DNA of 64,000 bases from Candidatus Micrarchaeota archaeon (GTDB lineage Archaea; Micrarchaeota; Micrarchaeia; Micrarchaeales; CABMGC01), in contig JAGWGX010000001.1 in assembly GCA_028867145.1 (NCBI GenBank), forward strand, positions 27,829 through 91,828, in the 5' to 3' direction. The position numbers and the translations under genes are program-made. The notes below the pieces were generated by a model that was not told where the DNA came from, did no database searches, and worked only from the letters and a program-made list of their open reading frames with translations. Of the stretch, positions 26,583-46,536 are shown piece by piece. Position 1 is the first letter of the stretch, and each line of letters opens with the position of its first letter.

Positions 26583-26586
26583 GAGA

Positions 26587-30821: not shown

Positions 30822-32327
30822 TCAATTATATCCTAGGTACCATGCCACCCCAGTATTGTCTGAACTGTAAGCAGGACATACAGGTGAAACGGTATCAGAA
30901 TTGCAATAACGTTGACCAGAATTAGGTGGGATTGCAGTATTGCCCCCACATATTGTAAGCTGCTGAGCTCCAGAACCGGGTATGTTGCTTGCGTCAAGGA
31001 CTACAGAATCACCAGCAACTATTGTATGTTGTGTGGTGAAGATATATTTTACGGGTGTTACACCTGAGCAGGGGCCTGTTCCCGCGCCGCCTGTATTCCA
31101 TGCTGATGCTGGAGCCGACGCTACGACATTATTGTTACTGTCCCTTATTTGTATTTGATATGTACCTGAAAGAGACCCTCCTCCCGTATACGCACTTGTT
31201 GTGAGGGTAACATCAGTCAAAGTCTGCCCAATCATGCTTGAACCTGCCAAAAAACGTTCCTCAAGTATCATTGACCCTTGATTTGAGTTTCGTATGTTGG
31301 ACGCCACCACTGTACTTTGAACCGAATAAAAAATTGCCGTAGTGGTTGTGGAAGTTGAACTTGTAGAGGTCGTAGAAGAAGTTGTACTTGTGCTTGTCGT
31401 TGATGTTGTTGAAGTGGAAGTAGTTGATGTTGAGGTACTTGAGGTTGTAGATGTCGAAGTTGTTGAAGTGGAGGAAGTTGATGTTGAGGAGGTGGAGCTC
31501 GTGGAAGTGGAGCTTGTTGAAGTCGTTGTTGCGGTGGTGGTTGAGGTCGAGGAGGTTGTTGTGACGAAATTTGCACTGAGCGTGCCCGTTGAACTTGTGG
31601 TTGCTGTTGAGCTCTGGGCTGATGATAATCCCACACTAACTCCTCCGCTGACCACCCAGTTGCCAAATGCGTATCCGTTTGGCGGGGCTCCATAGATTGT
31701 GTACTGGTAGTTTGCGAGGAAGATGTAGAGGTTGTTGTTTGGATAGCCAACCCCGTTGATGAAGATCTGGCCTGTTGTCGGATTTGTGAGAAGGGTGACG
31801 TTGTTGACCGGATTCTTCACGTTGGGAGAGACCTGAAGCGTTGCGTATCCGGTCGTGTTTATTGTGTTTGTGCTGACCACAGGATATGCACAGTTTGGAG
31901 AGCAGAGCTCGTAGTTTATGTTGAACTTTGGGTTTATCTGCGAGCCCACCTGTGAAATTTTCTTCCCTATTATGGCGGTGCATGTGACTGTTGAGCCTTT
32001 CATTGCATTATAAGGGAGGCAGTACCCTGAATAGTTGCCCCCCCCTGCAAATGAAGGTATCACGGTCAGCGCATTGCTTGGAAATGCGATTGTCTGCCCC
32101 ACATTGTTCAAGAACAGGACTACGAACTTGGAGGAAATCGCATTTGTGCTAAACAGCGAGGAGATGCAGCTGAATTCAGGTGAGATGTAGCATGAGGCGG
32201 TGTTGAAGCTTGCGGGGCTGGTCGTGGTGACGATCGCAAGAAGAAATGCAAGGAAAATCGAAATTGCCATAAATGCCCAAGAGTACGTGAGAAGAAATTC
32301 GATAGATGATTGAAGCTGGATAGACAT
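30822..32327 (-). CDS. Pilin-like protein with class III signal peptide, Ig/InlB-B-repeat-like module and 75-aa Ser/Thr tract
   Basis: N-terminal MSIQLQSSIEFLLTYSWAFMAISIFLAFLL (the Q-S-x-x-E-[FY]-L-x-T-Y-[GS]-W-A type). NGYAFGNWVVSGG block. Long S/T tract. Confidence 0.75.
   Translation of the reverse strand: MSIQLQSSIEFLLTYSWAFMAISIFLAFLLAIVTTTSPASFNTASCYISPEFSCISSLFSTNAISSKFVVLFLNNVGQTIAFPSNALTVIPSFAGGGNYSGYCLPYNAMKGSTVTCTAIIGKKISQVGSQINPKFNINYELCSPNCAYPVVSTNTINTTGYATLQVSPNVKNPVNNVTLLTNPTTGQIFINGVGYPNNNLYIFLANYQYTIYGAPPNGYAFGNWVVSGGVSVGLSSAQSSTATTSSTGTLSANFVTTTSSTSTTTATTTSTSSTSTSSTSSTSTSSTSTTSTSTTSSTSTSTTSTSTTSTTSTSTTSSTTSTSSTSTTTTAIFYSVQSTVVASNIRNSNQGSMILEERFLAGSSMIGQTLTDVTLTTSAYTGGGSLSGTYQIQIRDSNNNVVASAPASAWNTGGAGTGPCSGVTPVKYIFTTQHTIVAGDSVVLDASNIPGSGAQQLTICGGNTAIPPNSGQRYCNSDTVSPVCPAYSSDNTGVAWYLGYN
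31338..31562 (-). repeat. Low-complexity Ser/Thr-coding tract (aa 256-330 of the pilin-like protein)
   Basis: TTTSSTSTTTATTTSTSSTSTSSTSS...STTTT. The DNA is a degenerate ACN/TCN/AGY codon repeat. A related tract lies at 39650..39775. Confidence 0.85.
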
Positions 32328-32415: not shown

Positions 32416-32832
32416 TTATTTTAAAATTTTAAGAACGGAAGCCTTGAAGTTCTCAAGATCCTTAAGGTCAGACGCCATTTTGAATACTTCAAAATCATCT
32501 ATATCGGAATAGGCATGGACCAATGCATTCCTGAGCCTTCTCCTCGCGCGAACATTTTCAACAGTCTTGCTTCCAAGGGTGGGCTCAATCGCAGAAATTA
32601 CTGACTCCTCACTACCGACCGGCCTGAGCTCAAGCCCTTTGTGGAGCAGCACAATCACATCAAGCTCAAGCTCGCTGAGCACCTGCAAATACCTCTCCAC
32701 GGCCGCCTTTGTGTACGACTCCGATTTTTTATATTCCGATATGCTTTTTGGGGTTATTTTCTTGAGATTTGAGACATAGTGATCAAACATGGAAATCCTT
32801 GAGATTATGCGCGGCCTGTCCAAGATGTTCAC
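32416..32832 (-). CDS. HEPN-domain (DUF86/HepT-like) toxin
   Basis: Rx4H motif RNALVH within RRRLRNALVHAY. GTGA start/stop overlap with the upstream nucleotidyltransferase gene. Confidence 0.75.
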   Translation of the reverse strand: MNILDRPRIISRISMFDHYVSNLKKITPKSISEYKKSESYTKAAVERYLQVLSELELDVIVLLHKGLELRPVGSEESVISAIEPTLGSKTVENVRARRRLRNALVHAYSDIDDFEVFKMASDLKDLENFKASVLKILK

Positions 32833-33326
32833 CTAGGACTGCTTCCCATCAGCCACCTAAAATCACTCCACGACCTTGCGGCTTTCATTGAGAGATCGTG
32901 CAATAGCGCATTGTCTTTTGAATATATCACAGTGCCTTCCTCGAAAATCCTGCTTTGCAGCTCGTCAGGGAGCCCATTTAGGATCGAAAGGTCAAATAGC
33001 CTGCTAACCCTTTTTGAATAAGGCTCGAGTGCAGCAGAACCAGATTTTTGCCTCAGGAGTATTGCAACATCAATGTCCCTGTAGTTGGGCTCCTTTCTTG
33101 CATAGCTGCCAAACAAGATCACGGCAACCGCATTTTTGTCCTGCTTCGCAATGGATATGATTGCCTCAAGGGTGCTTTTTATCAGATCCTCACGCGCAAG
33201 CCACTGTGTTATCGCCTCTGATGCGGCGTTGCTGATGGACCCCTTTCCAAAGCCAAAGCGCTTCATTGCGGCTTCCCTAAGATTTGCATCGAGCGCGCTG
33301 GAGAGGTAGATCTTAGTTTCAGCCAT
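32829..33326 (-). CDS. Minimal nucleotidyltransferase (MNT-type antitoxin) with N-terminal RHH-like segment
   Basis: LFGSYARKEPNYRDIDVAIL (GS...DxD). N-terminal KIYLSSALDANLREAAMKRFGFGKGSISNAASEAITQWL is CopG/RHH-like. The start is set at ATG 33326, because the longer track ORF would overlap the neighbouring gene. Confidence 0.75.
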   Translation of the reverse strand: MAETKIYLSSALDANLREAAMKRFGFGKGSISNAASEAITQWLAREDLIKSTLEAIISIAKQDKNAVAVILFGSYARKEPNYRDIDVAILLRQKSGSAALEPYSKRVSRLFDLSILNGLPDELQSRIFEEGTVIYSKDNALLHDLSMKAARSWSDFRWLMGSSPR

Positions 33327-33391
33327 ATTAGGGATTAAGGGATTAAGATATTTATACCTTTTGATAAAAGACAAAACAGAGCGAGCATACA

Positions 33392-36064
33392 CTATCCAGA
33401 CCTTGGTATTCCGACCGTCTGCCACTCATTGGCCCCAGTTGTGATTGAAGAGAGGCCCGGAGCGTTGTAAGCGCCACTAAAGTATGGGAAGTTCACGTTA
33501 ACTATTGTGCCATTACCGCCATTTCCACTGTAGTCAATAGGATTGCCATTTAGCGGCCACCAGCCCGCAAGTGCATTGGATGAAACTGGCAGGCCCTGAA
33601 TCCCGCTTCGATAGAGCTGCTTAACTTGGTTGGAAGAGAGTGGGCCACCATAAACTTGCAGGTTTGATATCTGTCCAATAAAGTCATAGTTAGGACAACC
33701 TGTTGCAAGCTCACCTATTGATCCTACACCATTTGGGTGATTTTGTAGGGTTCCACTATATGCGGCCTGCGTCATTAGAGTTCCGTTTATGTAGATGTAC
33801 CTAGTTGACCCATCCCAGACCGCTACGATATTGTACCAAGTATTTAGTCCGTTCACGGGATAGCTCAAGTCAGAGATTCCTCCATTATTAAGCCTAAATT
33901 TGACGTAGGAACTCTCTAAGAAGAGCATGTATTGCGCATTGCAGCCGGTTTGTTGATAGATATTTCCGTTGTTCAAACCTGTTGCTGAGGTTGGGTAAAT
34001 CCATGCAGAAATGCTGAGTGGACCAACTATGTTCAGCGCGTTATTCGGATTAGCAACGTTTATGTAGCTATTTTGCAGCAAGCCGTTAAAGTTTGCGACC
34101 TGAAGGGAACTCTGTTGAAGTCCCAGAGGCAGGTATCCCAGATATGCGTGAGGCAGGAGGCTGTTAGAGCACTGCGAATTGCTGTTGCAGTTGAGAAGAC
34201 CGGGGATTGGGGACAGGGCGGTTGGCGTGGTAACGGACAGGATTGAATCTCTTACGTAATTTGTCGGAAGAGTATAGATAACGTTTGTTGGAATGCCGTT
34301 GTTGCCCTGGCCGCTATAGTCATTTGTATTTCCATTGAGCGGCCACCAGCCAACTATTCCAGAGTTGCTTGGAGGTAGGCCATTAAGTCCCTCTTGGTAG
34401 AGTTGATAGATTTGCTGCGCGCCAAGCGTCTTGTTGTAAACTTGAGCATTTGCTATACCGCCAGGGAAGAATCTATCTATCATCAGTTCACCGCCGATTT
34501 CAAGACCTGCGCTTCCACTTAGAGCAATATTTCCGGTTACAGCGATCGTGTTGGATTGCACGCCGTTAAGGTACATCACCACATTTGCGCCATTGTAAGT
34601 AACGCCCACCTGCGTCCACTGATTTAGACTAATTGGAGTTGATGAAAGATAGTAGCCAGCAGGTGCGACGCCGTAGAAGTAGGCCCCGAGGTATGGAACT
34701 CCGCCAATGGTCCTACCCACCAGGTAGTATTCATTTGCATCCTCAACTATGGAACCTTGGGTATTTGCGTTGTTTAGATTCACCCAAGCCAAGATAGTTA
34801 TCTGACTCTTCCCATTGAAATCAGGATTATTGGAGGGAATGGTAACATAACTTATTGGGCTTATTGAGTTAAAGGCGCCCACCTGCGGAGTGGATGTTGA
34901 AAAAGAGAACAGGCCATTCGGATTTTGCTTAAGAACTGACTGTTGGGCTCTGTCAAGATAGGAAGGCGTGAGGGGCGATGCAAAGTAGTAGCCGCCCGAT
35001 GCTGCAGTTATCAGATTCTGGATGCTGTAGACGCTTAGCGTGTTTCCGGATATCAGAACCTGTTGCCCATTTTTTATGTTGCCAAGCACACCTGTTGCAG
35101 AAGGATACGCGAGCCAGGGGATTGATGGAGAAAGCGTTACGCTGTTTATGCTGTAGGTTATAAGTCCCCCATACTGATTTGCACACTGGGCGCCAGAAGC
35201 ACCGCCTGTTATCCCGATTGCATTTGATGTAGCAAGTATCAGCATCTGGTTGTACGGAGCGAAGGAGAAAGCGGGAACGTTTGCGGCCACCATTGTGGAG
35301 AGGCTTCCGCAGGTCAACCCTCCTGCGCCAGTTGGCACTTGATATACCGGGCCATAGGCACTTGCAAGGTAGTTTCCGTTTGTGGCATTTACGTTTCCAA
35401 TCAGCGTTGTAAGGTTGCTAGTCTGGCTGAACCTTATGTTTCTCGGGACTCCCTGCTGATAGTAGAAAAGATCAGGCGTGTTGTTTAGGGAGAGCGTCGC
35501 ATTTACAGGTATCTGGTACCTGAACTTTCCTGCTGAGGAATTTAGTAGAATGTTTTGGACATAGTTCACGCTAAGTGTGTAGGGGCTGCTCTGGGAAATT
35601 ACGGGCTTGCTCTGATTCACGGAAAGCACAATAGCACCTAAATTGAGAGTACTTGAGAGCGAGAGGTTGTATGCGGAGATTGTGAGATTTGCCATCTGGC
35701 TCTTGAGGTAGTTTGCTGGTATTGAATTTGACGCGACATTTGGAAGGGTGCCATTTACCATCAGGTATGTTAGGTACAGGCTTGTGTTTGAGATGAAGTT
35801 GCTCTTCCTCATAGAGGCATTTAACTCGTAGTTTGCGAGCGTCTTCATTGCCTGTGAAAGGCTCGCTGATGCAAATAGCCCAGCGCTTGTCCCGAGCGCT
35901 TTGCCGTAGTTTATGGATCCGGAGCCGAGCGCAAGTGAGGTATCAAGATTGTTGTAGTTTACATTGAGCAGTGCAAATGTGATGAGCTCGCCGAGTATCA
36001 GTAGGAAGAGGACGAGTATTAGTATCGTCATGAACAGGCCTTTCTTGTTGGAGTTTAGCGCCAT
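33392..36064 (-). CDS. Giant pilin-like protein (890 aa) with N-terminal hydrophobic class III-like signal and at least 2 LamG-type modules
   Basis: N-terminal NSNKKGLFMTILILVLFLLILGELITFALL. Two copies of the junction ...Q[VI]Y...QLY..G[LI].G.P...........WWPLNGN..DYSG.G.NG, which is typical of Laminin_G_3 (concanavalin-like) domains. Confidence 0.7.
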   Translation of the reverse strand: MALNSNKKGLFMTILILVLFLLILGELITFALLNVNYNNLDTSLALGSGSINYGKALGTSAGLFASASLSQAMKTLANYELNASMRKSNFISNTSLYLTYLMVNGTLPNVASNSIPANYLKSQMANLTISAYNLSLSSTLNLGAIVLSVNQSKPVISQSSPYTLSVNYVQNILLNSSAGKFRYQIPVNATLSLNNTPDLFYYQQGVPRNIRFSQTSNLTTLIGNVNATNGNYLASAYGPVYQVPTGAGGLTCGSLSTMVAANVPAFSFAPYNQMLILATSNAIGITGGASGAQCANQYGGLITYSINSVTLSPSIPWLAYPSATGVLGNIKNGQQVLISGNTLSVYSIQNLITAASGGYYFASPLTPSYLDRAQQSVLKQNPNGLFSFSTSTPQVGAFNSISPISYVTIPSNNPDFNGKSQITILAWVNLNNANTQGSIVEDANEYYLVGRTIGGVPYLGAYFYGVAPAGYYLSSTPISLNQWTQVGVTYNGANVVMYLNGVQSNTIAVTGNIALSGSAGLEIGGELMIDRFFPGGIANAQVYNKTLGAQQIYQLYQEGLNGLPPSNSGIVGWWPLNGNTNDYSGQGNNGIPTNVIYTLPTNYVRDSILSVTTPTALSPIPGLLNCNSNSQCSNSLLPHAYLGYLPLGLQQSSLQVANFNGLLQNSYINVANPNNALNIVGPLSISAWIYPTSATGLNNGNIYQQTGCNAQYMLFLESSYVKFRLNNGGISDLSYPVNGLNTWYNIVAVWDGSTRYIYINGTLMTQAAYSGTLQNHPNGVGSIGELATGCPNYDFIGQISNLQVYGGPLSSNQVKQLYRSGIQGLPVSSNALAGWWPLNGNPIDYSGNGGNGTIVNVNFPYFSGAYNAPGLSSITTGANEWQTVGIPRSG

Positions 36065-38256
36065 GAGACCACGTTTACCTTATAGAGCTTTGTAATTCCT
36101 GTAGTATAATTGGTTATCGGCATCGCGACCCCGGAGCTGCTAACCTGATACGAGTTTAGGTAACCCGAAGGAAGATAGTTCCCAGGCTTGTAGACTACGT
36201 TTGTTGGATACTGGGTGTTTCCAAGCCCGCTGTAATCGTTTGAGTCTCCCGCAAGAGGGTACCAGGCCACAAGACCAGAATTGGAAAGGGGTGGTCCCTG
36301 CAGCCCGGAGGCGTATATCTTTGAGATTTGTAATGGAGAGAGGCTTGAGTTATAGATTTGCAGGTTGGCGATTGAACCTGAGAAGTAGTCATTAGCCTGT
36401 CCTCCAATGCTCCCCACGCTGTAACCGATACCGGAGTAGGTAGCCCCGGAATTAATCTCAGGCTGTCCGGCGCTGCTTTGAAGGTTGTTATTCAGGTAGA
36501 GTTGATAGGTGCCTTTGACGCCACCCACGGTGAGCACGCCTGCAACAAAGGACCATTTGTTTAAGGGGATGGTAAGTGAAGAGGTAAACGATTGCCAATT
36601 GCCCGGAACAGTGTTTATGTTCCATGTGGCTATGTAGAGGTTGCAAGAGGGAGTGAGTTCAAATGCGAGCGTAACCTGCGGAACCCCTTCAGTATAAATT
36701 TCTGGGGATGAAGAGCAGCTTGAGGGGTTTATCCAACCAGAAATAGTGAATGTTTGAAGATTATTTAGGACCGCTTTTGTCGGATTTAGAGTGTAGCTAT
36801 TTGTCCCCGTGAAAGTTGCGACGCTCCTTCCGGGGGCAAAGGTGTTGTTCAGGAAGATTGAGTAGTTGGTCATAGGTGCTATGCTGTTAACAAGCGCATC
36901 TGCGCAGCTTCCGCCGCCATTCAAATAGAGGGAGGAGGCAAATGAAACCAGAGACTTTGAGGACTGCAGATTGCAGGTGCCAAACGAAATCACGTTTGAT
37001 CCCACAACAGCATAGAGCCTGCCGTAAGCAAGGGCCATGTCACCAAAGGCAAGCGAGCCAAGCTGTGTTGGCACTTTGGTGTACCAGATTATGCTGCCCG
37101 TACTTGTGTTCATAGCTACAATGTAGTTGTTGGACCATTCAGTGTATACAGTCTTTGCAGAAACAACGACTATCCCCCAAGAGGAGGATGTGCCCACCAC
37201 CGTAGAAGGGATTGAGCTCCATAACTGAACCCCATTTGAAGCTACGGCTGTCACCGCATTTGAGGTCTGATAGTAGATTATGTTGTTGTATATCGCCGGC
37301 TGTGTCGCGGTGTTTATTATTGAATATGGGAAGCCTGAAACCTGCGTTCCGTCTACATACATCGCATTTGCCTGCGTTGAACCCTGTAGGGCGACTATAT
37401 TGGTTCCGGGAACGACTGAAAATCCCAGCGTTGGAGCAAGAGAGGCGCTCCAAATCGCATTTGCCGAGGAGCCAAAGTCCTCCATTAAGTTAAACAGATT
37501 TCCAGCATGTATTATGCCAATTGAGCCAGAGATAACCGCGAGGGAGTACCCGCCGCTTGGGACGGTATATTTCCAGGCATTTGTCCCGTTGTTTAGATAG
37601 TATGCAAGGTCTGTGGCTTGAGCTCCTATCTTTCCACCGAAGTAAATTTTATTGTTGTAAATTAGAAGGGGGGAGGAATAGGGGGTCAGGTATCCCATGC
37701 TAGCTGCGCCGCTTGAGCTCCATATCAAGGCGTTTGTAGAGGGGTTCACAGCAGTTAGGTTTGTCGCGTTGGGATAGATTAGCATTCCAGAGGCTATTGC
37801 AGGGTCACCATAGATTGTGGAACCCGTAGTTTTTTTCCAAACCATATTGCCGTTGGTTGCGTTTATCGCATACAGCGTATTTCCTGCGCCGAAAAATACC
37901 TTCCCGTAGTCAATTGTCATGTTGGTTGGGGTCGCGCCTGCATTGAATAGGAAAGAGATCGAAGGAGATAGTGGCCCATGAACATTGCTTCCCGTGTGGT
38001 AAGCGTCCGCCCTATATTGGTCCCAAACCTCTGTGCTTGCGTTTGCCTGATAGGTAAGATTTGAGGCAAGCGCGCTTGAGAATGCAGTATCGAAAGTTCC
38101 CGTTGAGAGCAGAGTTTGCAGGGTCGACGCCGCGGAGGAGTAGCTTAAAATCGTCGAGGTCTGGGGAAGGTAGAAGAAATAGGAGAGCAGCGCTATGCCT
38201 GAGACTGCTATTATCAGGGCGAAGATGGAATCAAGGGTGAATATAACCAGCTTCAT
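36055..38256 (-). CDS. Pilin-like protein with PQQ-type beta-propeller-like repeats and C-terminal LamG-type module
   Basis: N-terminal MKLVIFTLDSIFALIIAVSGIALL (ATG 38256, track TTG 38271). Repeats of the type GNMVWKKTTGSTIYGDPAI / ALIWSS / IIWYTK. C-terminal ...LQIYNSSLSPLQISKIYASGLQGPPLSNSGLVAWYPLAGDSNDYSGLGN. Confidence 0.65.
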   Translation of the reverse strand: MKLVIFTLDSIFALIIAVSGIALLSYFFYLPQTSTILSYSSAASTLQTLLSTGTFDTAFSSALASNLTYQANASTEVWDQYRADAYHTGSNVHGPLSPSISFLFNAGATPTNMTIDYGKVFFGAGNTLYAINATNGNMVWKKTTGSTIYGDPAIASGMLIYPNATNLTAVNPSTNALIWSSSGAASMGYLTPYSSPLLIYNNKIYFGGKIGAQATDLAYYLNNGTNAWKYTVPSGGYSLAVISGSIGIIHAGNLFNLMEDFGSSANAIWSASLAPTLGFSVVPGTNIVALQGSTQANAMYVDGTQVSGFPYSIINTATQPAIYNNIIYYQTSNAVTAVASNGVQLWSSIPSTVVGTSSSWGIVVVSAKTVYTEWSNNYIVAMNTSTGSIIWYTKVPTQLGSLAFGDMALAYGRLYAVVGSNVISFGTCNLQSSKSLVSFASSLYLNGGGSCADALVNSIAPMTNYSIFLNNTFAPGRSVATFTGTNSYTLNPTKAVLNNLQTFTISGWINPSSCSSSPEIYTEGVPQVTLAFELTPSCNLYIATWNINTVPGNWQSFTSSLTIPLNKWSFVAGVLTVGGVKGTYQLYLNNNLQSSAGQPEINSGATYSGIGYSVGSIGGQANDYFSGSIANLQIYNSSLSPLQISKIYASGLQGPPLSNSGLVAWYPLAGDSNDYSGLGNTQYPTNVVYKPGNYLPSGYLNSYQVSSSGVAMPITNYTTGITKLYKVNVVSWR

Positions 38257-38701
38257 CGGCAAACCTTCCAAGCTCTCTGTGCATACAAACTTATTAAACT
38301 TTTTTATTGGAGGCTTTTAATCCCTAAAATCAGTTCGGCATATCTTATCCATCAACAGTATTCTAGGCCAGGGCAAAAATAAATGGCCTCCTCCACGGGC
38401 TTTAGCCCATGGTATCCATGTAACGCAACCATACAAGAAAAATAGACTGTGTGATTCATCCTCGACCTAAAAGGTCGTGGTATTCTTGCCTAAAAACCAA
38501 TCAGAGTAACAGCATCTCTAAAGAGTTTAGCATGATGCAGAGTTCGGAATCAAAGTTTATAATCGTATCTGCGGAGCCTCTAAGACAAGACATTCGAACT
38601 GGTTGTTGATCAATGTAAAGGGTTAAATCAATTCTGCATAGGACCAAATAGTGGGTTTCTAAAAAAGTCCCCTATAGAGGATTCTACAAGCACATAATTG
38701 T

Positions 38702-41038
38702 CTAGTGTATCCATACTCTAGTTATTATCTGCCCTGCCGAACTTGCGCCGCCATTACATCCACTATGACCCGCTGTTCCAGAGATCCCATGTGCCGTATC
38801 GCCTGCTGCACCTCCTGCCCCGCCGCATGCACCGCTTCCGCCTATGCCTCCTCCTCCCCCATTTGCATTGTAGATGCAGGGACTGCCAGTAGATGATGTT
38901 CCGCCGCCGCCTCCGCCGCCGCCGCCGTTGCTGCCTCCTCCGCCACCCGCACCATTTAGCCACTGGCAAGACCAGTAGGTGGAGGAAGGAGGGGAATTAG
39001 GATAATTTGGAGCTCCGCCTCCGCCGCCTCCTCCGCCTCCAACATTCGTGCTTCCCTGAGTAAGCGCTGAATTATATGCTAGGAATATTGTACCACCGTT
39101 ACCACCTGCTCCACCTCCTCCTCCACCCAAACCTGAAGTGTCTGAACCTGATGAGCCTCCAGAAGCACCGTTTGCACCACTGGCAGTAAATACACCGTTG
39201 TTGACTACATTGCCACCATACAGTTCTATTATGCCGCCGCCATTACCACCTGCTCCGCCATTAGCAGCAGAGTTACAACCGTCTGATAAGCCTCCGCCGC
39301 CCCCGCCAGCACCGCCTGCTCCTGCCGCCAAAACTACACCAAGAAACTTACTGGTTCTTGACATACCGGATAAACCTGCTCCCCCATTTGTTGGAGGGTA
39401 GCCACCCCCTGCGCATAGTCCAATAGCTCCTTGTCCGGCTGAACCTCCTGCACCCCCATCATAACTGTCTGTAATAGTTCCTGAGTTTGTTAAGGTGTTA
39501 TTTGCCTGTAGGTAATATCCGTGCTCATCTAGTGTAACACCACTGTTTATATTTATACTGCCGGATGCTACCACGTTACAAGTCAACGTGGAGGTTGAAG
39601 AATAGGTTATCGAACCAAAATAGCTGCCGCAGGTAGGATTAGCAGGTATGGTTGTGGTCGTTGAGGTTGATGTGGAGGTAGAGGAGGTTGTTGAAGTGGA
39701 AGTTGTTGAGGTAGAAGAGGTTGATGTTGTGGAGGTTGACGTGGTAGATGTTGTGGAGGTTGTTGTTGAGGTGAAAGAGCCTGTCTCTGTTATAGGGTTG
39801 TTTAGAGTGACTGAGGGCGATGTCGAGGCGCCAGTGTAGCTGCCGGTTCCGGTTCCGGTCCACCCGTTGAACACGTATCCTGCGTTTGGCGTCTCCCCAA
39901 GGGTTGCGCCGCTGCCGGAGTTGTACCATCCGCTAACAGGAGTTACAGACCCGCCGATTCCAGGAGATGCGGATGTGGTGAGGAAATACTGGGTCATGTA
40001 GTTTCCAGTGAGGGTGCAGTTTGCAACCCCGGATAGTGTCCCTGACTGGGCTGTTGCCCCACATCCTGTCACAAAGCTGTACACGTACTGAACATTCGCC
40101 GCTCCCGAGACCGTCGTCTGGAAAGAATATGAGTGCGAGACTCCCTGCCCAAAGCAGAGGATCTGCGGGAATGAGAGGTATCCGACCCCGTCAATTAGGA
40201 TTGCGTTTGAGGTTGCACCCGAAATAGAAGGAATTGAGATTGTGTAGCAAACAGGAGGGGTGAATGCGACCACCGCATTTGCAACGGTGTTCGCAAACGA
40301 GGCCGTCACGAGCACGTTTCCACTTGAGGAGCTTGAGATGTAGGAGAACGCATTCCCGTTTCCGTCAGTCGTTGTGACGATCGGATTGACTGGGGCGTTA
40401 ATTGAGTTTGAGGTAAAGTTGACGGTTGCGCCCGATACGGGAGTGCCTAGCAGCCTTACATTTGCGGTGAGCTTATCGAGTGAGGTTGAGAGCGCGACCT
40501 GAGAGTAGTTCTGCGCACTTAACGAGACTGTGATTGTGGTCGGAGAGAGAAGCTGCGAGGAGTGGGTGCTGAATGTGCCCGCAAAGTTTTGCCTCTGGTT
40601 ATTTGAGCAGTATACAACGTTGCCGCCCGCGCATGGGGTGTAGCTTAGTATGAATTTTCCAGACGCAAGCGCGCCCTGCGAGAGCGCCGGAGTTATTGTC
40701 GCATTGCAGATTATTGCGCCTCCCGGGAGGACGAAATTTGGCCTGCACGATGCGATTATCGGGCTGTATCCGCTTAGGTTCACATTAAGAAGCGGATTTA
40801 GGATAGGGAATGGGTTGGTGTTTGTCAAAAGGAGCGCAATCTTGGAGAGCGCGTTTGAGGAGCCAAGCACTATGTCCTGGCAGTAGGGACCTGAGTAAAA
40901 GGAACAGGAGGACTGAGTTATTGTGGAGGGAGCAAAGACGAAAAGATAAAGCGAGGCGGTCACGATCGCTGCGATAAGAAACGCCCAACCGTACGTTAGG
41001 ATGTACTCTGTCGCAGATTGGACCTTTTTGCCCGCCAT
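38702..41038 (-). CDS. Pilin-like protein (778 aa): class III signal, Ig-like modules, Ser/Thr linker, about 240-aa Gly-rich C-terminal domain
   Basis: N-terminal KKVQSATEYILTYGWAFLIAAIV. GYVFNGWTGTGTGSYTG block. S/T tract at aa 422-463. The C-terminus is rich in GGAGGNGGG/GGGGGGG runs with interspersed Cys. Confidence 0.75.
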   Translation of the reverse strand: MAGKKVQSATEYILTYGWAFLIAAIVTASLYLFVFAPSTITQSSCSFYSGPYCQDIVLGSSNALSKIALLLTNTNPFPILNPLLNVNLSGYSPIIASCRPNFVLPGGAIICNATITPALSQGALASGKFILSYTPCAGGNVVYCSNNQRQNFAGTFSTHSSQLLSPTTITVSLSAQNYSQVALSTSLDKLTANVRLLGTPVSGATVNFTSNSINAPVNPIVTTTDGNGNAFSYISSSSSGNVLVTASFANTVANAVVAFTPPVCYTISIPSISGATSNAILIDGVGYLSFPQILCFGQGVSHSYSFQTTVSGAANVQYVYSFVTGCGATAQSGTLSGVANCTLTGNYMTQYFLTTSASPGIGGSVTPVSGWYNSGSGATLGETPNAGYVFNGWTGTGTGSYTGASTSPSVTLNNPITETGSFTSTTTSTTSTTSTSTTSTSSTSTTSTSTTSSTSTSTSTTTTIPANPTCGSYFGSITYSSTSTLTCNVVASGSININSGVTLDEHGYYLQANNTLTNSGTITDSYDGGAGGSAGQGAIGLCAGGGYPPTNGGAGLSGMSRTSKFLGVVLAAGAGGAGGGGGGLSDGCNSAANGGAGGNGGGIIELYGGNVVNNGVFTASGANGASGGSSGSDTSGLGGGGGGAGGNGGTIFLAYNSALTQGSTNVGGGGGGGGGAPNYPNSPPSSTYWSCQWLNGAGGGGGSNGGGGGGGGGTSSTGSPCIYNANGGGGGIGGSGACGGAGGAAGDTAHGISGTAGHSGCNGGASSAGQIITRVWIH
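39650..39775 (-). repeat. Low-complexity Ser/Thr-coding tract (aa 422-463)
   Basis: FTSTTTSTTSTTSTSTTSTSSTSTTSTSTTSSTSTSTSTTTT. Same degenerate codon repeat as 31338..31562. Confidence 0.85.
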
Positions 41039-41248
41039 CCTATCATGAGTAATTGCAATAATAGATTTAAATTATCTTCTTAATTAGATGGAATCTGATG
41101 TAAAGTTACTAATTTCTCCTCTCAATTCAAGACATTTAATTATTTGTTTAGGTATCCGCAAAATGTGCACATTTCGTTTGGGCGTCTTTGAAAAATACGC
41201 GATCTCCACCTCTTCAGGGGGTAACAACCAAGGCTTCAAAACTGGAAC

Positions 41249-41794
41249 TTAGCCAATCCCAAATGACGAATTTGTCCAGATAAAAATTTGCATGTTTGCA
41301 CCCTGCCCGTTTATTACTACCGCCTTGTTTGTGAGCTGCTGGGTCACACCGTTTAGCGCGCTGCCCACGAGTGGTGCGGGCTTCTTTCCTATCGCGAGGT
41401 TGTAGTTGCTTGAGCTAATAACTATGTAGTAGTCAAACGAGACGCCCAGAAGCGGCTTTGTTGCAAGGTAGTTTCCATTTGCCATTGAGAAGAGGGCGTT
41501 TACCTTGTTTTGTGAAAGCACGCCCGTTGCACCGTTTCCTAGCCCCACGGTCAGATTTGACCAGGTAAGAGAGTTAGCAGGGTCTGCAATTGAGTACCAG
41601 TTGCTCGGATAGCCCGTCCCGAGTATCTTTTCAGAGAGGCTCTCGAGCTGCAGCTGCATGCTCTGTATGCTTGTGCCAGTTGAGATTGAGGTCTGCGAAT
41701 TTATGGTGTACCAGACAAACGCCATTAGCGAGACTGCAAAAGTGAAGATGACAATCGCGAAGATTGCGTCAAATGAGAGGAATTGTAGTTTCAT
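41249..41794 (-). CDS. Small pilin-like protein (181 aa)
   Basis: N-terminal MKLQFLSFDAIFAIVIFTFAVSLMAFVWY resembles the N-terminus of the 36055 gene (MKL.F...D.IFA..I). ATGA overlap with the upstream giant gene. Confidence 0.6.
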   Translation of the reverse strand: MKLQFLSFDAIFAIVIFTFAVSLMAFVWYTINSQTSISTGTSIQSMQLQLESLSEKILGTGYPSNWYSIADPANSLTWSNLTVGLGNGATGVLSQNKVNALFSMANGNYLATKPLLGVSFDYYIVISSSNYNLAIGKKPAPLVGSALNGVTQQLTNKAVVINGQGANMQIFIWTNSSFGIG

Positions 41795-44700
41795 GGAGAC
41801 CAGCTCAGCGGAACCGTTGTGGAAACGGAAGGGGGAATCTGTAGATTATATAGCTGCTGTATTTGGGAGGCGCTTAATGCTGTGGCATAGAGCTGAAGGC
41901 TCGAAATGCCCCCATAAAAGGAAGAGTTTGTGGTTGAGCCTCCCGCGGTATTCCCACCTATTTGAACTGCATTCATCGTGTAACCATACATCGTTGAGCA
42001 ACTTCCCGTGGTGCATCCTGCATCTTGGCCATTTATGTAGAGCTTTATGCTTGAGCTGGAAGAATTGTAGGAGTATGCAACTTGATTCCATGAACCTGGA
42101 TTTACAGTCCTAGAACTCAAATTGCATTGGGTTCCCCAATGATCAATATAAATCTTCAATTTTCCAGAGCATGCCGCTCCATTTGCACCTGTCACAGCAA
42201 AAAAGTCGGCGGCACCTGAAAGTCCAGAGCTGAAAATAGGGCTTCCCATTCCCCCATACGCTCTTGGAACATATATCCATGCAACCACACTTCTAGAACC
42301 GGAGATGGTTTGGATAGAATTCACAGATAGATAACTGTTTTGGCCATTGAAATTAATCCCTGAATAGTTGCTTGCTTTTAGCAAATAGGGCACATAATTG
42401 AGAACGCTGTTATACGCCACGTTTGTAGAAGAAATACTGTTTATACCGCTACCTATACTGTAATTGTTCGCATTTCCGTTGAGTGGAAGCCAGCCCGCAA
42501 GCCTTGTTGAGGGAAGCGGAACGCCGGCTATGCCTCCTTGATAAATCTGGAGGGCTTGCTGGGCGCTTATGGTCTGGTTGTATATCTGGATATTCGAGAG
42601 ATTTCCGGAGAACCACCTGTCTGCAGAGTTTGCAAATCCCCTCCCCAAAGTCAGGTTTGCAAAACCTGACGGCCATTTCGTGTTGCTCGCGTTAAACACA
42701 AGGACACCGTTTAGGTACCCAGTTATGGTATTACCATTCCTTGATGACACTACGTTGTACCAGACTTTTTGGCCAATCACATTCGAGTAGGTGTAAACAT
42801 TGTAGTTTCCAGCGCTGGTCCCGACAATCAGGTTGAGGGAATTGGACCCGCCTGAGCCGCCCTGTTCAAAACGCGGCCCTGCATTGTTTGCAGCCGGCAC
42901 GAAGTTGGCATCTAGTGAATTTTTGTAGTTGGTGGTTGCGGTTGAGTTCATCCAGAAGGAAACAGACCAGTTTGAGATGGAGTTTATTTTTGTCACATTT
43001 CCAACTTTGATGTAGCTACTAGCTCCATTAAAAGAGGGAGTAAGTATCTTGCCGATGTTCCCGCTTGAAAGTTGCTGCTTTGAGATGGATGCTGCAAGCG
43101 GCGCAAATGATGTGCTCCCATACATTGAAGCATTGTAAGAATTCCCAGAATAATCGTTTGTGTCGCCGTTTAGTGGGTACCACAGCTGCGCGTTCTGGCC
43201 AGATATTGGAGAGGAGGACAATCCTGCAGCGTAAAGGGATGCGATTTGGATCTGCGAGAGCGAATTGCTGTAGAACTGGTAGTTTGCTATGCCGCCTGAG
43301 TAGGAAAGGCCAGAGCCGCAGTTTGTGAGATCTGGAGTGCCGAGGGGATAGAACATTGCAGTAGTACCTCCTGCCGGAACCTGCCGGGTGTAGGAGATCG
43401 TATTTGTCGATGCGCCGTTTATGTACCCAGTCAGCACTGCGCCATTATAGGTCATCGCTACGTTAGTCCATGTGTTGGTGTTTATCTTTCCAAGAAGCTG
43501 GCATCCCAATGCCCAAATCCTCATGTAAACATTCCCATTTACGAGCTCGAGCCATGAGTCGTGCCAGTTGGTGTTTGGGGCTGTCTGGCCAAGCTCGCTT
43601 AATATCACCCCGCTTGTTGCATTAGGGCGCACCCATAAAGAGATCGTGAATGACTGGGCAGCATTGTCCATAAACACAAACCCAGTTTTCTGTTCTACAT
43701 AGCCAGTCTGCCCGGAAACCCCAAGAGACAAAGGAGCTTGAGAGGATGGAAACTGTGCATAGTAGTTTTGAAGGCTCCACCAAGGCTGTCCGCCAAATGC
43801 GCCGTTATTCTTGTTGCCGCTTATGTCTTGTGCCACACTGCCCTGGCCCAGATTGAGAGGGTACCATGCGGCAAGTAAGGAGCTAGGAAGCGCATTTGAG
43901 TTGAACGCGGTCACCTGGACAAACGCTTGACCATTGTTGCCCTGTTGGTTTAGGAATACCGAAGCGATGCCGTTTGAGTTGGTGTATGTGGATACCACCT
44001 GCCCTGGGCCGCCGTTACCGTTTGTGAGGTTTCCAGCTGTGGTAGTAAAGCCAACCAGCAGATTGTTCACCGCCTGCCCCAATGGGTTCCCGACAGTTGC
44101 AAAGAGCTGCGCTACACTAGTGAATATTATGGAACCAGTGATGACTCCGTTTTTGCCATTACCACCGTAGTCATTTGGATCGCCGTTAAGAGGATACCAG
44201 GCATTTAATCCGCTGTTAGATATTGGGGTGGCGCTTATTCCTCCTTGATAAAGTTGCATAATTTGTTGCGCTGTTAACACTTGGGAGTATATCTGGACGT
44301 TTGCTATCTTGCCATTCCATCTATTGCCTATTCCAGGATATCCTCCAATCCTAAGTGTGTTGGAAGGATTAAGTGTTACGGAGAAGCTTTGAGAGTATAC
44401 TAGCGTGCCATTCTTATACAGCTTTGCGGTTGTGCCATCATAGGTCAAAACAAAGAAGTACCAGTTGTTGTAGGAAATCTGTGTCTGCGCTGTGCATGTA
44501 TTGCCATCCCCCTGGTTATTTATCCAAAATGTCACATAGGTAGGATTTCCAAGCCCCGCGGCACAGGTTTGCAAGGTGTATCCAGAGTTGGTAGTAGAGA
44601 CTATTGTTGGAAAGCTGGGTATCGTACCTGTTGGCGATATCCATACCGCAGCACTGAAGGTAGTAGTGCCAGGAGTTATTCCATTATTTGCATCAATATA

Positions 44701-45249
44701 GCTGCTAACGCCGTCGAAATTTGCTGCATGCACAGTCTGAGTGGAAAGTGAGACAGATGCGCTAACATTTGCGTTTGTCGGGCACTGATAGTCAATGCAG
44801 ATTGTTCCGAACGAATTCTGCAATGAAATAGTGCCGTTTGCAATAGGCAAAACGTAGAGCGTGTTGCCTATTCCGTAAAAGCTTGCGCTTGAGCTCACCG
44901 ATTGCACATTGCTGTACGCTGTTGCTCGCATGATCTGCGTCCCGCTGGTCGCGGCGATTATAACAAGGCCTCCCTTTGTGACCGAGACGTTGTAGGGAAT
45001 GTTTCCGATGCTGGTTGTGATTGGAAGCTGCGCGCTGAATCCGGTTCCCGCCTGCGCTGCCCTGTTTATTTGGAGCGCAATTGTCTGCGCGACAAGCTGT
45101 AGCTGAGAGAAGGTCTGCGAATTCTGCGTGATTGCCCTTTGCTGGGTGATCAATGCGAAGAGGAAGAGGAAGACCACGAGTATGAATGCGAAGACTATCA
45201 TGAACTCGATGGAGATTTGTCCCTTCTTTTTATTTGATTCTTGAAACAT
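41791..45249 (-). CDS. Giant pilin-like protein (1152 aa) with class III signal and multiple LamG-type modules
   Basis: N-terminal NKKKGQISIEFMIVFAFILVVFLFLFALI (KGQ-x-S-x-E-F type). Junction/LamG-entry motifs WYPLNGDPNDYGGNGKNG, WYPLNLGQGSVAQDISGNKNNG, WYPLNGDTNDYSGNSYN and WLPLNGNANNYS. Confidence 0.75.
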   Translation of the reverse strand: MFQESNKKKGQISIEFMIVFAFILVVFLFLFALITQQRAITQNSQTFSQLQLVAQTIALQINRAAQAGTGFSAQLPITTSIGNIPYNVSVTKGGLVIIAATSGTQIMRATAYSNVQSVSSSASFYGIGNTLYVLPIANGTISLQNSFGTICIDYQCPTNANVSASVSLSTQTVHAANFDGVSSYIDANNGITPGTTTFSAAVWISPTGTIPSFPTIVSTTNSGYTLQTCAAGLGNPTYVTFWINNQGDGNTCTAQTQISYNNWYFFVLTYDGTTAKLYKNGTLVYSQSFSVTLNPSNTLRIGGYPGIGNRWNGKIANVQIYSQVLTAQQIMQLYQGGISATPISNSGLNAWYPLNGDPNDYGGNGKNGVITGSIIFTSVAQLFATVGNPLGQAVNNLLVGFTTTAGNLTNGNGGPGQVVSTYTNSNGIASVFLNQQGNNGQAFVQVTAFNSNALPSSLLAAWYPLNLGQGSVAQDISGNKNNGAFGGQPWWSLQNYYAQFPSSQAPLSLGVSGQTGYVEQKTGFVFMDNAAQSFTISLWVRPNATSGVILSELGQTAPNTNWHDSWLELVNGNVYMRIWALGCQLLGKINTNTWTNVAMTYNGAVLTGYINGASTNTISYTRQVPAGGTTAMFYPLGTPDLTNCGSGLSYSGGIANYQFYSNSLSQIQIASLYAAGLSSSPISGQNAQLWYPLNGDTNDYSGNSYNASMYGSTSFAPLAASISKQQLSSGNIGKILTPSFNGASSYIKVGNVTKINSISNWSVSFWMNSTATTNYKNSLDANFVPAANNAGPRFEQGGSGGSNSLNLIVGTSAGNYNVYTYSNVIGQKVWYNVVSSRNGNTITGYLNGVLVFNASNTKWPSGFANLTLGRGFANSADRWFSGNLSNIQIYNQTISAQQALQIYQGGIAGVPLPSTRLAGWLPLNGNANNYSIGSGINSISSTNVAYNSVLNYVPYLLKASNYSGINFNGQNSYLSVNSIQTISGSRSVVAWIYVPRAYGGMGSPIFSSGLSGAADFFAVTGANGAACSGKLKIYIDHWGTQCNLSSRTVNPGSWNQVAYSYNSSSSSIKLYINGQDAGCTTGSCSTMYGYTMNAVQIGGNTAGGSTTNSSFYGGISSLQLYATALSASQIQQLYNLQIPPSVSTTVPLSWSP

Positions 45250-45255: not shown

Positions 45256-46536
45256 TCATCTCTCCTTCAGCAGCCATTTCACCGCAGGAACAAATGATAT
45301 CTCCTTTTCATCTATTCTTTCCACAGATTCATATTCGTATGTGACTATGGTGCCGCGTTTTAGCTTGAATTTCTTGAGCGCGTTCACAAGTGCGCTCACT
45401 TCCTTGTCTTTTCTGCCATCAAATGCATACGATACCTGTATTGCATCGGTAACTTTTATGCCCCTTTTTACAAGGAAATCTACCTCGTTGCCGCTCCCGT
45501 CCACCCAATAGGAGATGCTCTCATTGAGCCTAAGACGCCTGGCAAGATTGATGTAAACTATATTTTCCAGTGCGGAGCCCTTGTCTTCAAGCGGATTGGT
45601 GGAGACCTGCCGCGCGAGTGCATGGTCAATGACATAAATCTTGCGCGGCGCTACTGCCGCATCGGCTGCCGAGGTAGAATGCTTGTTCACGGCAAATACA
45701 AGATACGAATCCATGGCGTAGTCCACAAACTTTTTTACGGTGTTCTTGCTCCCGATCTTGAAGACGTTGCCCATTTTCCCATAGGACATGCGCTTGCCGT
45801 AAAGGTTTAGCAGGTAAAAAATGAATTCCTCAAAGGCCCTTTTGTCCCTTATTGAATACCTCATCATTATGTCCCTTGATATGATGTCGTGAAGGTACTG
45901 CAGCAGTATCTCCCCTCTCTTTGAGGAGAACGCCTCGGGGAAGCCTCCAAACTGGAGATAATTTTTGAAAGTGGACTTGAGTTTTGCTGAGCCTTCCGTG
46001 GTATATTTATTTGCAGTGGGCGCAAGCTCCGAAAAGGAGAACGGAAACTCCACGAAAAGCATGTTGCGCCCCGTGAGAGCCGTGGACACCTCAGATCTCA
46101 GCAAACTCGCATTGCTTCCGGTCAGGTATATTTTCACATCCTCGAATTCATACATTCGGTTTGCCCATTTTTCCCAGCTCTTAATGTTTTGTATTTCATC
46201 CAGGAAAAGGAATACCTTGCCTTTTGGGGAGTGCAGCTGCAAAAACAGCTCGTACAACCTTTGGAAATCTTCGGAGGAGAATGTGCTTAGCCGTTCATCC
46301 TCGAAGTTAAGGTAAAGAATGTTGTCCTCACCAACCCCCTCCTTAAGAAGATGCCTTATAAGCTGCAACAGAAGAGTGGATTTGCCACACCTCCTGACTC
46401 CTGAGATTATAACCATCTCCCTGCTAGCGGACTCTTTGAGAAGCCTGTGGAGCATCTCACGTTCTATGCCTGCATGCTTTAGCAGCAATTTTTGCCGCTG
46501 ATCTTCCATTACAAACTTTAGCTGTTCTTCCTGCAC
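45256..46536 (-). CDS. AAA+ ATPase of the COG1373 type (AAA_14 + DUF4143-like)
   Basis: Walker A ISGVRRCGKSTLL and Walker B FLFLDEIQN. C-terminal EVDFLV block typical of the DUF4143/PD-(D/E)xK-like tail. The start is GTG 46536 or ATG 46509. Confidence 0.7.
   Translation of the reverse strand: MQEEQLKFVMEDQRQKLLLKHAGIEREMLHRLLKESASREMVIISGVRRCGKSTLLLQLIRHLLKEGVGEDNILYLNFEDERLSTFSSEDFQRLYELFLQLHSPKGKVFLFLDEIQNIKSWEKWANRMYEFEDVKIYLTGSNASLLRSEVSTALTGRNMLFVEFPFSFSELAPTANKYTTEGSAKLKSTFKNYLQFGGFPEAFSSKRGEILLQYLHDIISRDIMMRYSIRDKRAFEEFIFYLLNLYGKRMSYGKMGNVFKIGSKNTVKKFVDYAMDSYLVFAVNKHSTSAADAAVAPRKIYVIDHALARQVSTNPLEDKGSALENIVYINLARRLRLNESISYWVDGSGNEVDFLVKRGIKVTDAIQVSYAFDGRKDKEVSALVNALKKFKLKRGTIVTYEYESVERIDEKEISFVPAVKWLLKER

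Follow-up and report, generated by a model that had tools for sequence, protein, structure and literature searches.

What would a small archaeon do with three giant lectin-like proteins encoded beside the genes of a type IV filament? The question is raised by a 64-kb stretch of DNA (the window) from a 96-kb contig of a Candidatus Micrarchaeota metagenome-assembled genome, in which five consecutive minus-strand genes in the list of open reading frames (ORFs), at positions 33392-45249, encode the proteins p1152, p181, p778, p738 and p890. A sequence-only reading of this region had taken three of them, of 1152, 738 and 890 aa, for pilin-like adhesins of an episymbiotic small archaeon, built of LamG-type modules. 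The translations agree with those given there, and that reading proved largely right. The answer favoured here, to which a probability of about 60% may be given, is that the locus is a type IV filament operon conserved across Candidatus Micrarchaeota, the giant subunits being modular pilins that present lectin-type domains and serve as tip adhesins in host recognition. The observations that carry this answer are the domain content of the proteins, their N-terminal motifs, the synteny of their genes, their phyletic distribution and a mosaic pattern of conservation with exchange of cores. The source is indeed a small archaeon, a DPANN member of the Micrarchaeota, to which the relatives of p738 found in a genome scan also point, and elsewhere in the window lie archaeal housekeeping genes for topoisomerase VI B, eIF2-gamma, Cdc48 and the CCA-adding enzyme.

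Lectin-like domains behind pilin-type N-termini

That all three giants are built of LamG domains was borne out by Pfam, which places Laminin_G_3 above threshold four times in p1152 (41791-45249; E 2e-67, 226 bits against a gathering cutoff of 27.6), twice in p890 (33392-36064; E 2e-39, 135 bits) and once in p738 (36055-38271; E 1e-16, 62 bits), where PQQ_2 (E 1e-16) is likewise above its gathering threshold; these proteins and their parts all lie on the minus strand. The NCBI labels are 'hypothetical' for p1152 (MDE1845720.1), 'PQQ-binding-like beta-propeller repeat protein' for p738 (MDE1845717.1) and 'LamG domain-containing protein' for p890 (MDE1845716.1). A single-sequence search of p1152 against the sequences of the PDB gave zero matches; a profile of the seven LamG modules matches solved LamG-type structures, the nearest being 4QVS, a LamG domain of an S-layer protein (E 3e-11), and 5HON, the binding module of an arabinanase (E 1e-10), with further matches, down to E 1e-4, to pentraxins and the lectin domain of NanA. 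Together the giants hold seven LamG beta-sandwiches and an eight-bladed propeller, to which are added a weakly Ig-like insert and a 385-aa domain specific to the lineage. LamG/Laminin_G_3 domains are carbohydrate- or protein-binding modules.

The largest protein, p1152, runs from a signal and a pilin-like head of ~170 aa (aa 1-170; 44740-45249), through a first LamG core, an orphan N-terminal hairpin of the kind that opens LamG domains (the W-hairpin, named after its tryptophan motif) and a Big_1-like insert, to three modules each of hairpin plus core. The first core, M1 (44248-44718), has no leading hairpin and matches our own LamG hidden Markov model (HMM) from model position 35 onwards; the junction that follows it, J1, together with the orphan hairpin covers aa 315-372 (44134-44307, by motif scan and own HMM), and the insert after J1 (43885-44097) is only weakly Big_1-like, that is Ig-like, at a sub-threshold Pfam E of 0.0078. 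The three complete modules are M2, with its hairpin at W462 (43231-43881, motif scan and own HMM), M3 (42541-43197, own HMM) and M4 (41848-42507, motif scan and own HMM), the last of which ends in a half-junction, ISSLQLY...LY, without a trailing hairpin. There are ~55 full-length orthologues of 1088-1155 aa.

In p738, whose true start is probably the ATG at 38256 (MKLVIF...), a pilin-like helix leads into the propeller (~aa 105-430; 36982-37959), a LamG core (36313-36840, from Pfam and own HMM) and an orphan W-hairpin with a conserved tail (36058-36279, from motif scan and own HMM). The PQQ-type propeller that the sequence-only reading had suspected is supported by PQQ_2 and by an AlphaFold2 (AF2) model from a 16-sequence alignment (mean pLDDT 69), which Foldseek aligns to the eight-bladed propellers of BamB at E 1e-18 and a target-normalised TM of 0.67-0.78, BamB and tetrathionate hydrolase being the best structural matches. 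The model is all-beta over aa 470-640, and W670, P672, L673, Y699 and W737 are invariant in 16 homologues. The only propeller-type matches by Pfam are PQQ_2 and Beta-prop_ACSF4, and Pfam finds no PilY1-type propeller (IPR008707 / Neisseria_PilC) in p738.

The third giant, p890, begins with a lineage-specific N-domain of ~385 aa (34910-36064) that opens with the class III-like sequence KKG↓LFMT, the arrow marking the predicted cleavage site here and below, and continues with a hairpin-less core M1 (34397-34912), a hairpin and core M2 (33611-34363) and an orphan hairpin with tail (33395-33577), all three delimited by the own HMM. The AF2 model of its N-terminal 400 aa (pLDDT 80) shows a helix of 75 residues (7-81) followed by an alpha/beta domain. 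This N-domain occurs in only 174 representative clusters among 1.84 billion proteins, and in the complete proteins listed, which are of ~850 to 1400 aa, it is N-terminal.

Pilin-like N-termini had also been proposed, and p1152 provides the clearest of them. It begins MFQESNKKKG↓QISIEF (QISIEFMIVFAFILVVFLFLFAL after the cleavage site), followed by ~20 hydrophobic residues, and thus has a 10-aa leader ending in Gly, with Gln at +1 and Glu at +5. The pilins of Methanococcus maripaludis that are processed by EppA have leaders of 5-13 aa ending in Gly, Gln+1 and Glu+5 (PMC3875500), and at the level of the motif p1152 matches these criteria for an EppA-type class III signal exactly. The motif Q[IL][AS][IL][ED][FY] is kept across the p1152 family, with Gln+1 and an acidic +5 in ~55 orthologues. 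Gln+1 and Glu+5 recur in p157, p778 and p501 and Gln+1 in p181, whilst the N-termini of the p738 and p890 families read MK[G/A/L]↓IIFTLD and K[G/A]↓[L/Q][F/L]MT. Five conserved proteins, p157, p1152, p181, p738 and p890, are in this way predicted to begin with class III-signal-like hydrophobic helices. The head of p1152 also resembles the Pfam TadF N-terminus, at a sub-threshold 20-23 bits.

Two of these five are small. The gene for p181 (41249-41794, minus), which begins MKL↓QFLSFD... and has N-terminal homology to p738 (E 2e-6), is kept downstream of the p1152-like gene in most loci with a downstream ORF of the right size. The gene for p157 (46640-47113, minus) lies upstream of p1152 and was found upstream of the p1152-like gene in 16 alignable loci, with a mean column identity of 67%; conservation in this family far exceeds that of the giants, as would fit a structural pilin, and p157 is a candidate for the major pilin of the filament. 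The first ~80 residues of the p157 family align to the head of p1152 (hhalign P=67%, E=5e-5, 73 columns).

All the pilin-like proteins encoded between 33392 and 47113 are depleted in charge, with K+R+D+E at ~5-6% as against 25-30% in the cytoplasmic proteins of the window, and are enriched in Asn, Ser and Thr; N-glycosylation sequons in the three giants reach 1.6 per 100 aa against 0.2-0.8. The loss of charge suggests acid-stable extracellular proteins of an acidophile, and with it an acidic habitat.

The other half of the argument is gene context. On the p890 side, on the opposite strand and convergent with p890, lie two adjoining T2SSF genes for platform proteins of the TadC/FlaJ type (28786-29820 and 29825-30814, plus; Pfam E 3e-14 and 7e-14), a 222-aa gene, a T2SSE ATPase gene of type IV filament assembly, FlaI-like (26545-28098, plus; Pfam E 2e-33), and a gene for a 407-aa coiled-coil protein. 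Two further loci, L001 and L003, show the order CBS, p157, p1152, p181, a variable position, p738 and p890, then the convergent genes T2SSF x2, 222 aa, T2SSE, coiled coil and TrkA_N; the insertions specific to the present genome by comparison with them are p778, p501, a HepT/MNT pair and an AAA_14 gene. In a scan of species-representative genomes the relatives of p738 are confined to the Micrarchaeota, at 27 loci, with three bacterial matches that cover only the LamG part of the query. The three LamG genes occur together in at least 27 species genomes of the Micrarchaeota, down to a protein identity of ~30%, and in those of no other group.

This context bears on the possibility that the giants are simply generic membrane-anchored or secreted lectin-like proteins, with the N-terminal helix an uncleaved anchor or an ordinary signal peptide and with no link to the pilus genes. 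The class III signal is not called by Pfam at threshold, some residues ahead of the predicted cleavage site are non-canonical, and the NCBI annotation offers nothing beyond LamG-domain, PQQ-propeller or hypothetical proteins, all of which would suit such an explanation. It is nevertheless improbable, since the synteny is conserved: L001 and L003 share the order beside T2SSE and the two T2SSF genes, and the LamG trio stays together in the 27 species genomes. Furthermore stop/start overlaps (4 nt between p1152 and p181, 10 nt between p738 and p890) tie the giants to small pilin-like genes in one operon, and Gln+1/Glu+5 is invariant in the ~55 orthologues of p1152.

The main alternative is a surface array of the bindosome kind. 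In the bindosome of Sulfolobus, sugar-binding proteins carry class III signals and sit in the surface layer or in a short pseudopilus. A bindosome-like surface array would use the signals and the ATPase/TadC pair solely in membrane extraction and anchoring, and its LamG domains would capture polysaccharide or matrix for nutrients or biofilm and not for host recognition. The ATPase does match the NCBIfam model of the bindosome protein BasE (E 6e-41, under cutoff), the nearest solved relatives of the LamG modules include carbohydrate-binding modules of glycanases, and apart from p157 no gene for an obviously abundant major pilin of small size (~70 aa) was found in the window; proteins that carry class III signals without being part of a filament are also known (Makarova et al. 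2016). We nonetheless regard such an array as unlikely. The ATPase scores higher against models of the FlaI type (258 bits against the NCBIfam FlaI-like model, also under cutoff), p157 is a well-conserved small pilin within the operon, no linked ABC transporter genes were found among the scanned ORFs of the window, and the extreme turnover and exchange of cores to which we now turn suits variable partner surfaces better than common polysaccharides.

Fixed scaffolds and the turnover of LamG cores

The sequence-only reading had pointed to a conserved junction of ~50 aa, in at least six copies, at which the end of one jelly roll runs into the start of the next. A regular-expression scan of the six-frame translation of the 64-kb window with the C-terminal motif I[AS]NxQxY...L[ST]..Q...LY and the W-motif WxPLxG...DxSG places both motifs in p1152, p738 and p890 only, at six sites each under the strict patterns; a relaxed pattern and the own LamG HMM add a C-terminal motif in p890 (ANAQVYNK..., aa 537) and a hairpin in p1152 (WLPLNGNANNYS, ~aa 920), bringing each to seven. 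One of the W-motifs (p1152 aa 462) had not been listed before. Six junctions were therefore recovered, together with a terminal half-copy and one extra W-motif, and comparison of the six copies in register gives amino-acid identities of 31-57%. Only half of them lead as described into the next jelly roll, these being J2 and J3 of p1152 and J1 of p890; J1 of p1152 leads into the weakly Big_1-like insert, and the junction of p738 and J2 of p890 lead into short conserved C-terminal tails, for which Pfam has zero matches.

The W-motif was considered as a special linker and rejected as such, as LamG_3-type domains of unrelated proteins, bacterial ones included, generally start with it at their N-terminus: P0137, P0143-P0150 ('MSLIAWYPLNGDTKDYSGNN...') and a Chitinophagaceae T9SS protein open straight with a W-hairpin, and in the aligned solved structures the W-segment is likewise N-terminal. 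A junction is therefore best described in three parts: the conserved last strand, with a short helix, that ends one LamG_3 domain, then ~15 aa of linker, then the canonical hairpin with which a LamG_3 domain opens. Proteins of 790-1140 aa from ENA/Logan assemblies (P0137, P0143-P0148 and P0150) form a family that begins with the W-hairpin and has no signal peptide, and are perhaps viral or secreted by another route.

In the Micrarchaeota proteins, however, hairpins and cores are shifted in register. The hairpin occupies positions 2-35 of the HMM built from the modules, and the first core in each of p1152, p738 and p890 starts at about model position 35 and so has no hairpin, whereas later cores are complete; each giant also has one orphan hairpin without a following core, after core 1 in p1152 and at the C-terminus in p738 and p890. 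With H for a hairpin, the same pattern is found in nearly every complete gene of the 27 Micrarchaeota genomes, [noH,H,H,H] plus orphan in p1152-like, [noH] plus orphan in p738-like and [noH,H] plus orphan in p890-like genes, and is still kept by variants with one module extra or fewer; in a few genes the orphan hairpin was missed at the thresholds of the HMM. The cores of bacterial LamG_3 proteins in the same scan are canonical almost throughout, with zero orphans.

It is tempting to suppose that the giants complement one another by donor strands or domain swapping, an orphan hairpin or its tail in one of them filling the place of the hairpin that the first core of another lacks. This would lock p738, p890 and p1152 together at the pilus tip as a defined heteromeric fibre of many lectins, on which swappable cores would set the host range. 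We know of no type IV pilus that uses such complementation between lectin pilins, and consider the idea a rather doubtful one. In the AF2 secondary structure two short strands stand directly ahead of the first core of p738, which may therefore not truly lack its N-terminal strand, and the orphan hairpin of p738 is poorly modelled (pLDDT 40-63). An orphan hairpin might instead fold back onto the core that precedes it, as in a circularly permuted domain.

The proposal that the junctions allow recombinational shuffling between the three genes fares differently at two time scales. In this genome it fails at the DNA level: junction DNA is 40-59% identical in register with exact runs of at most 14 nt, the best 65-nt stretches are 62-71% identical, 14 nt is also the longest exact run common to any two of the genes, and junction DNA is rejected as a present-day substrate for recombination. 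A repeat search found no long direct repeats in 33392-45249. A diversity-generating retroelement is rejected as well, there being no pair of template and variable repeats and no reverse transcriptase among the scanned ORFs of the window. Over evolutionary time, however, the exchange of cores among the three gene families is supported.

The first line of evidence is a mosaic of conservation. Block by block against close orthologues, the scaffolds are 55-85% identical and individual cores 12-35%. For p1152 and its closest relatives the values are 55-82% in the pilin head, junctions, insert and C-terminus, the head being 60-82% identical among orthologues, and 12-40% in particular cores. The same scaffold and core mosaic is found in p890 and p738. 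Among 105 pairs of four-module proteins of the p1152 family with N-terminal domains at least 60% identical, cores at the same position fall below 35% in 82-97% of pairs and have a median of 27-28%, which may be compared with a median of 27% for different cores within one locus; within p1152 the cores are mutually 22-26% identical. The p890 family gave the same result.

The second line is that closely similar cores are met with at other positions or in other genes. The nearest relative of p1152 M1 is core M2 of P0117, a protein of a different family, at 60%, against 26-29% for its positional orthologues; p1152 M2 shares 69% identity with the M2 core of P0060 and 51-53% with that of the p890-family proteins P0029 and P0031; and the closest core to p890 M1 is M4 of a p1152-family protein (47%). 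For p1152 M4 the best relative in the sets retrieved is at no more than 34%. Elsewhere in the phylum, cores of the p1152 family match cores of the p890 family (M1 of P0090 and M1 of P0031 at 71-76%, M2 of P0061 and M2 of P0027 at 67%) and the single core of the p738-family protein P0006 (M1 of P0063, 61%). At locus L017 the p890-like M2 is 71% identical to the p1152-like M1 of L029, and between the orthologues P0062 and P0060, M1 of the former is 69-73% identical to M4 of the latter although their M1 cores are only 31% identical. When 301 cores were clustered at 45% identity they fell into 190 clusters, of which 51 had several members, 21 of these being mixed in position and 15 mixed in gene.

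Could this mosaic have come only from very fast divergence in place under diversifying selection, or from assembly chimeras? The median of 27-28% for same-position cores of close orthologues is at background and saturation alone could yield it. In-place divergence cannot, however, yield pairs of 50-76% identity over 130-150 aa across positions and genes, and chimeras would show ~100%; as the pairs were drawn from separate assemblies and their identity is well below that value, they are not assembly chimeras. An account without core exchange is accordingly very improbable. One duplicate may itself be an assembly artefact and has been counted for the chimera explanation: at L009 a 1245-nt copy of p890-like sequence (N-domain and first LamG core; 161-1405 against 5887-7131) is 99.8% identical and sits at the edge of the contig, where it is joined to LamG modules that differ from those downstream of the other copy, the identity stopping ~25 codons short of the junction motif. 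It may be a very recent intragenomic exchange or a chimera, and it is not used as evidence.

In core pairs matched across positions, the leading hairpins are 39-61% identical (background ~45%) and the trailing ones 36-82% (background ~54%); as the flanking hairpins are mostly near background, the unit exchanged appears to be the core between two junctions. A comparison across genomes had been suggested to look for the gain and loss of modules, and this shows the number and order of modules to be very stable, with some genes having one module more or fewer. As far as can be judged from sequence, the process is one of core replacement inside a fixed scaffold and not of free shuffling.

A proposed tip complex and its genomic surroundings

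These observations suggest a working model. The pilin-like proteins would insert into the membrane and be processed by a prepilin peptidase encoded elsewhere, and the giants would then form a complex at the filament tip, either priming the filament or capping it; the tip is favoured since proteins of this bulk could not be accommodated in the body of the filament. Such a tip would present to the surface of the host cell a panel of unrelated lectin-like binding sites, whose ligands may be glycans or other molecules of that surface. Cleavage, incorporation into the filament and location at the tip are thus predictions of the model. Over time the scaffolds, consisting of pilin heads, junctions and C-terminal tails, would stay fixed whilst the LamG cores turned over as cassettes common to the three genes, a turnover that would be as expected of the determinants of specificity in host recognition.

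A number of points weigh against a host-recognition tip built of modular pilins. The 27-position Pfam model Class_IIIsignal does not reach its gathering score (16-18 against 23.7 bits), so that membership of the class III pilins is argued from motif and context. The residue at -1 is Leu or Val in p157, p778, p501 and the p738 of the present genome, which is unusual, being atypical for prepilin peptidases, and no prepilin peptidase gene of the A24 type was found among the scanned ORFs of the 64-kb window. The homology between p157 and the head of p1152 is only moderate, as judged by its P of 67%, and the N-domain of p890 has no significant fold match in the PDB, to a pilin or otherwise (Foldseek best E 0.011, TM at most 0.3). 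It may also be sterically demanding for a single tip to hold three bulky pilins together with the extra ones. LamG domains bind proteins and steroids too, so that glycan binding is not certain. A search of the literature for the expression or localisation of these proteins in cultured Micrarchaeota found nothing specific. With regard to the peptidase, the available text on the micrarchaeon Mia14 reports a lone FlaK-like peptidase encoded apart from the pilus loci (PMC5498576).

Beyond the conserved set, the window encodes two further pilin-like proteins. The gene for p778 (38702-41038, minus), with Gln+1 and Glu+5, encodes Flg_new_2 and Big_1-like domains by Pfam, then a poly-Thr/Ser linker and a Gly-rich C-terminal region of ~300 aa for which Pfam has zero matches. 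That for p501 (30822-32327, minus; MSIQL↓QSSIEF) also has a poly-Thr/Ser linker, and the two proteins have a homologous N-terminal module of ~145 aa (33% identity, E 1e-9). Both are missing from the syntenic loci L001 and L003 and look like strain-specific additions. Antisense ORFs that overlap the low-complexity parts of p778 and p501 are artefacts.

Other insertions lie close by. The genes for p890 and p501 are separated by an inserted toxin-antitoxin pair of a HepT-like RNase and an MNT nucleotidyltransferase (32416-33425, minus), whose MNT ORF, in its listed extent, runs 34 nt into the 3' end of p890. An AAA_14/DUF4143 ATPase gene (45256-46536, minus) splits p157 from p1152 and is not at that site in L001 or L003. 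Within the coding sequence of p890, ARAGORN calls a 79-nt tRNA-Thr (34679-34757, minus) that is not in the Rfam results and is probably a false positive; Rfam in turn gives a borderline 61-nt tRNA (23246-23306, plus; 30 bits) not called by ARAGORN.

A conserved neighbour of the pilus operon is a membrane protein of the exosortase/archaeosortase family (Exosortase_EpsH; 49598-51112, plus), the gene for which is found in relatives at 1695-2654 of L001 and 562-2079 of L003; archease, CBS-domain and NUDIX-UDG genes are neighbours as well. No obvious C-terminal sorting signal is present in any LamG protein of the window. Further away, a 792-aa protein (10070-12448, plus) has a class III-like N-terminus, MEQKSKKRG↓IAIIAV, no Pfam domain and the highest density of N-glycosylation sequons in the window (3.2 per 100 aa), and may belong to an S-layer or be one more surface protein of the pilin-like type. 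At 96-8335 (plus) several genes for secreted or membrane proteins follow one another, one with a PKD domain and several with no Pfam match; the series closes with a HerA/DUF87/TraG-like P-loop ATPase (6827-8335) and may be a second surface or transfer apparatus. Finally, an aquaporin-family (MIP) gene is followed by one for a Peptidase_C39-like cysteine protease (59227-60570, plus).

Lectin-bearing pili in other organisms and host recognition

Pilins with grafted lectin modules are known from bacteria. PilC of Streptococcus sanguinis, a modular pilin, carries modules of the Ig and ConA-like lectin types, binds glycans and forms a tip complex with PilA and PilB (PMC9934059), its tip location being inferred from the bulk of the protein. 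The giants resemble PilC and PilB in having a pilin-type N-terminus with lectin modules grafted onto it and genes within a pilus operon that has a small partner pilin (PMC9934059, PMC8179133), and PF13385 (Laminin_G_3) is among the modules most commonly grafted on bacterial pilins, including those of CPR bacteria (PMC8179133). With its pilin-like head of ~170 aa followed by four LamG domains, p1152 has the make-up by which modular pilins have been defined (Raynaud et al. 2021), the IPR012902 motif being inapplicable to archaea. PilC is, however, bacterial, has a Gly-1/Glu5 signal of the IPR012902 type and carries a single lectin module, whereas the present proteins, known from their genes alone, have the EppA-type Gln+1/Glu+5, up to four LamG domains per protein and seven per operon, a propeller, and cores exchanged between genes.

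A closer parallel in lifestyle is the episymbiont Nanosynbacter lyticus TM7x, also ultrasmall, whose largest minor pilins are described, in the available text, as jelly-roll lectin-like (PilX1) and beta-propeller (PilX2) proteins, the propeller pilin being needed for efficient host binding (PMC11623550). TM7x belongs to the bacterial CPR lineage and no sequence relationship was detected; the account of its pilins, as far as it is available, gives a single accessory domain per protein and describes no LamG arrays or core cassettes. Amongst archaea, clade 1 pili with two TadC proteins have been predicted to carry large tip adhesins of the ConA clan (DUF2341), and clade 1, which includes the Epd pili of Methanococcus, also shares with the present locus an ATPase with two TadC proteins, at least five class III-signal proteins and Gln+1/Glu+5 (PMC4858521). 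The likeness is one of gene content. The domain here is Laminin_G_3 and not DUF2341, the latter (PF10102) having no Pfam match in any protein of the window and occurring only in the distant relatives P0117 and P0124, and the present locus has no FleN/MinD or EppA gene.

The nearest precedent comes from the same phylum. In Mia14 ('Ca. Mancarchaeum acidiphilum') an expansion of LamG genes was reported, part of which is tied to type IV pilus loci, and the proteins were suggested to act in host interaction (Golyshina et al. 2017, PMC5498576). The association of LamG jelly-roll proteins with pilus loci is thus common to the two genomes, whereas the available text of that paper contains no domain architecture, no analysis of signal peptides, no junction or hairpin pattern and no comparison of core turnover.

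Some other likenesses are more limited. In the PilY1/PilC adhesins of diderm type IVa pili a beta-propeller protein with variable N-terminal modules is tied to minor pilins at the tip; PilY1 itself is no pilin, however, and its propeller is of family IPR008707, whereas p738 has a PQQ_2/BamB-like propeller with a pilin-like N-terminus of its own. The conserved scaffold and the diverse, exchangeable distal binding modules common to several loci recall the receptor-binding proteins of phage tail fibres, although the present case concerns a cellular pilus operon with another fold context and no mobile element detected. TafC of Haloarcula hispanica (NCBIfam NF052521; PMC11821415) is filament-associated and archaeal, and its model matches the present LamG modules at E 6e-21, but at 75 bits against a cutoff of 410, and the Tafi are secreted by the Tat pathway and not by type IV pilus machinery.

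It had therefore already been published that Micrarchaeota have LamG proteins encoded close to type IV pilus loci, in the 2017 report, and that bacteria have modular lectin pilins. What is added here is the evidence from signal peptides, the set of five genes across the phylum, the register-shifted hairpin pattern and a quantified, cassette-like behaviour of cores across three genes; the advance is one of detail and testability and not of kind. The molecular means by which DPANN archaea locate their hosts and stay attached to them are for the most part unexplained, and the operon supplies candidates that are conserved across a phylum. Moving cores on fixed scaffolds are the signature that would be expected of determinants of host range, and the parallel with the lectin-like pilins of TM7x, as far as these are described in the available text, suggests convergence of ultrasmall symbionts in both domains. 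The question of host specificity becomes testable by comparing core type with host taxon.

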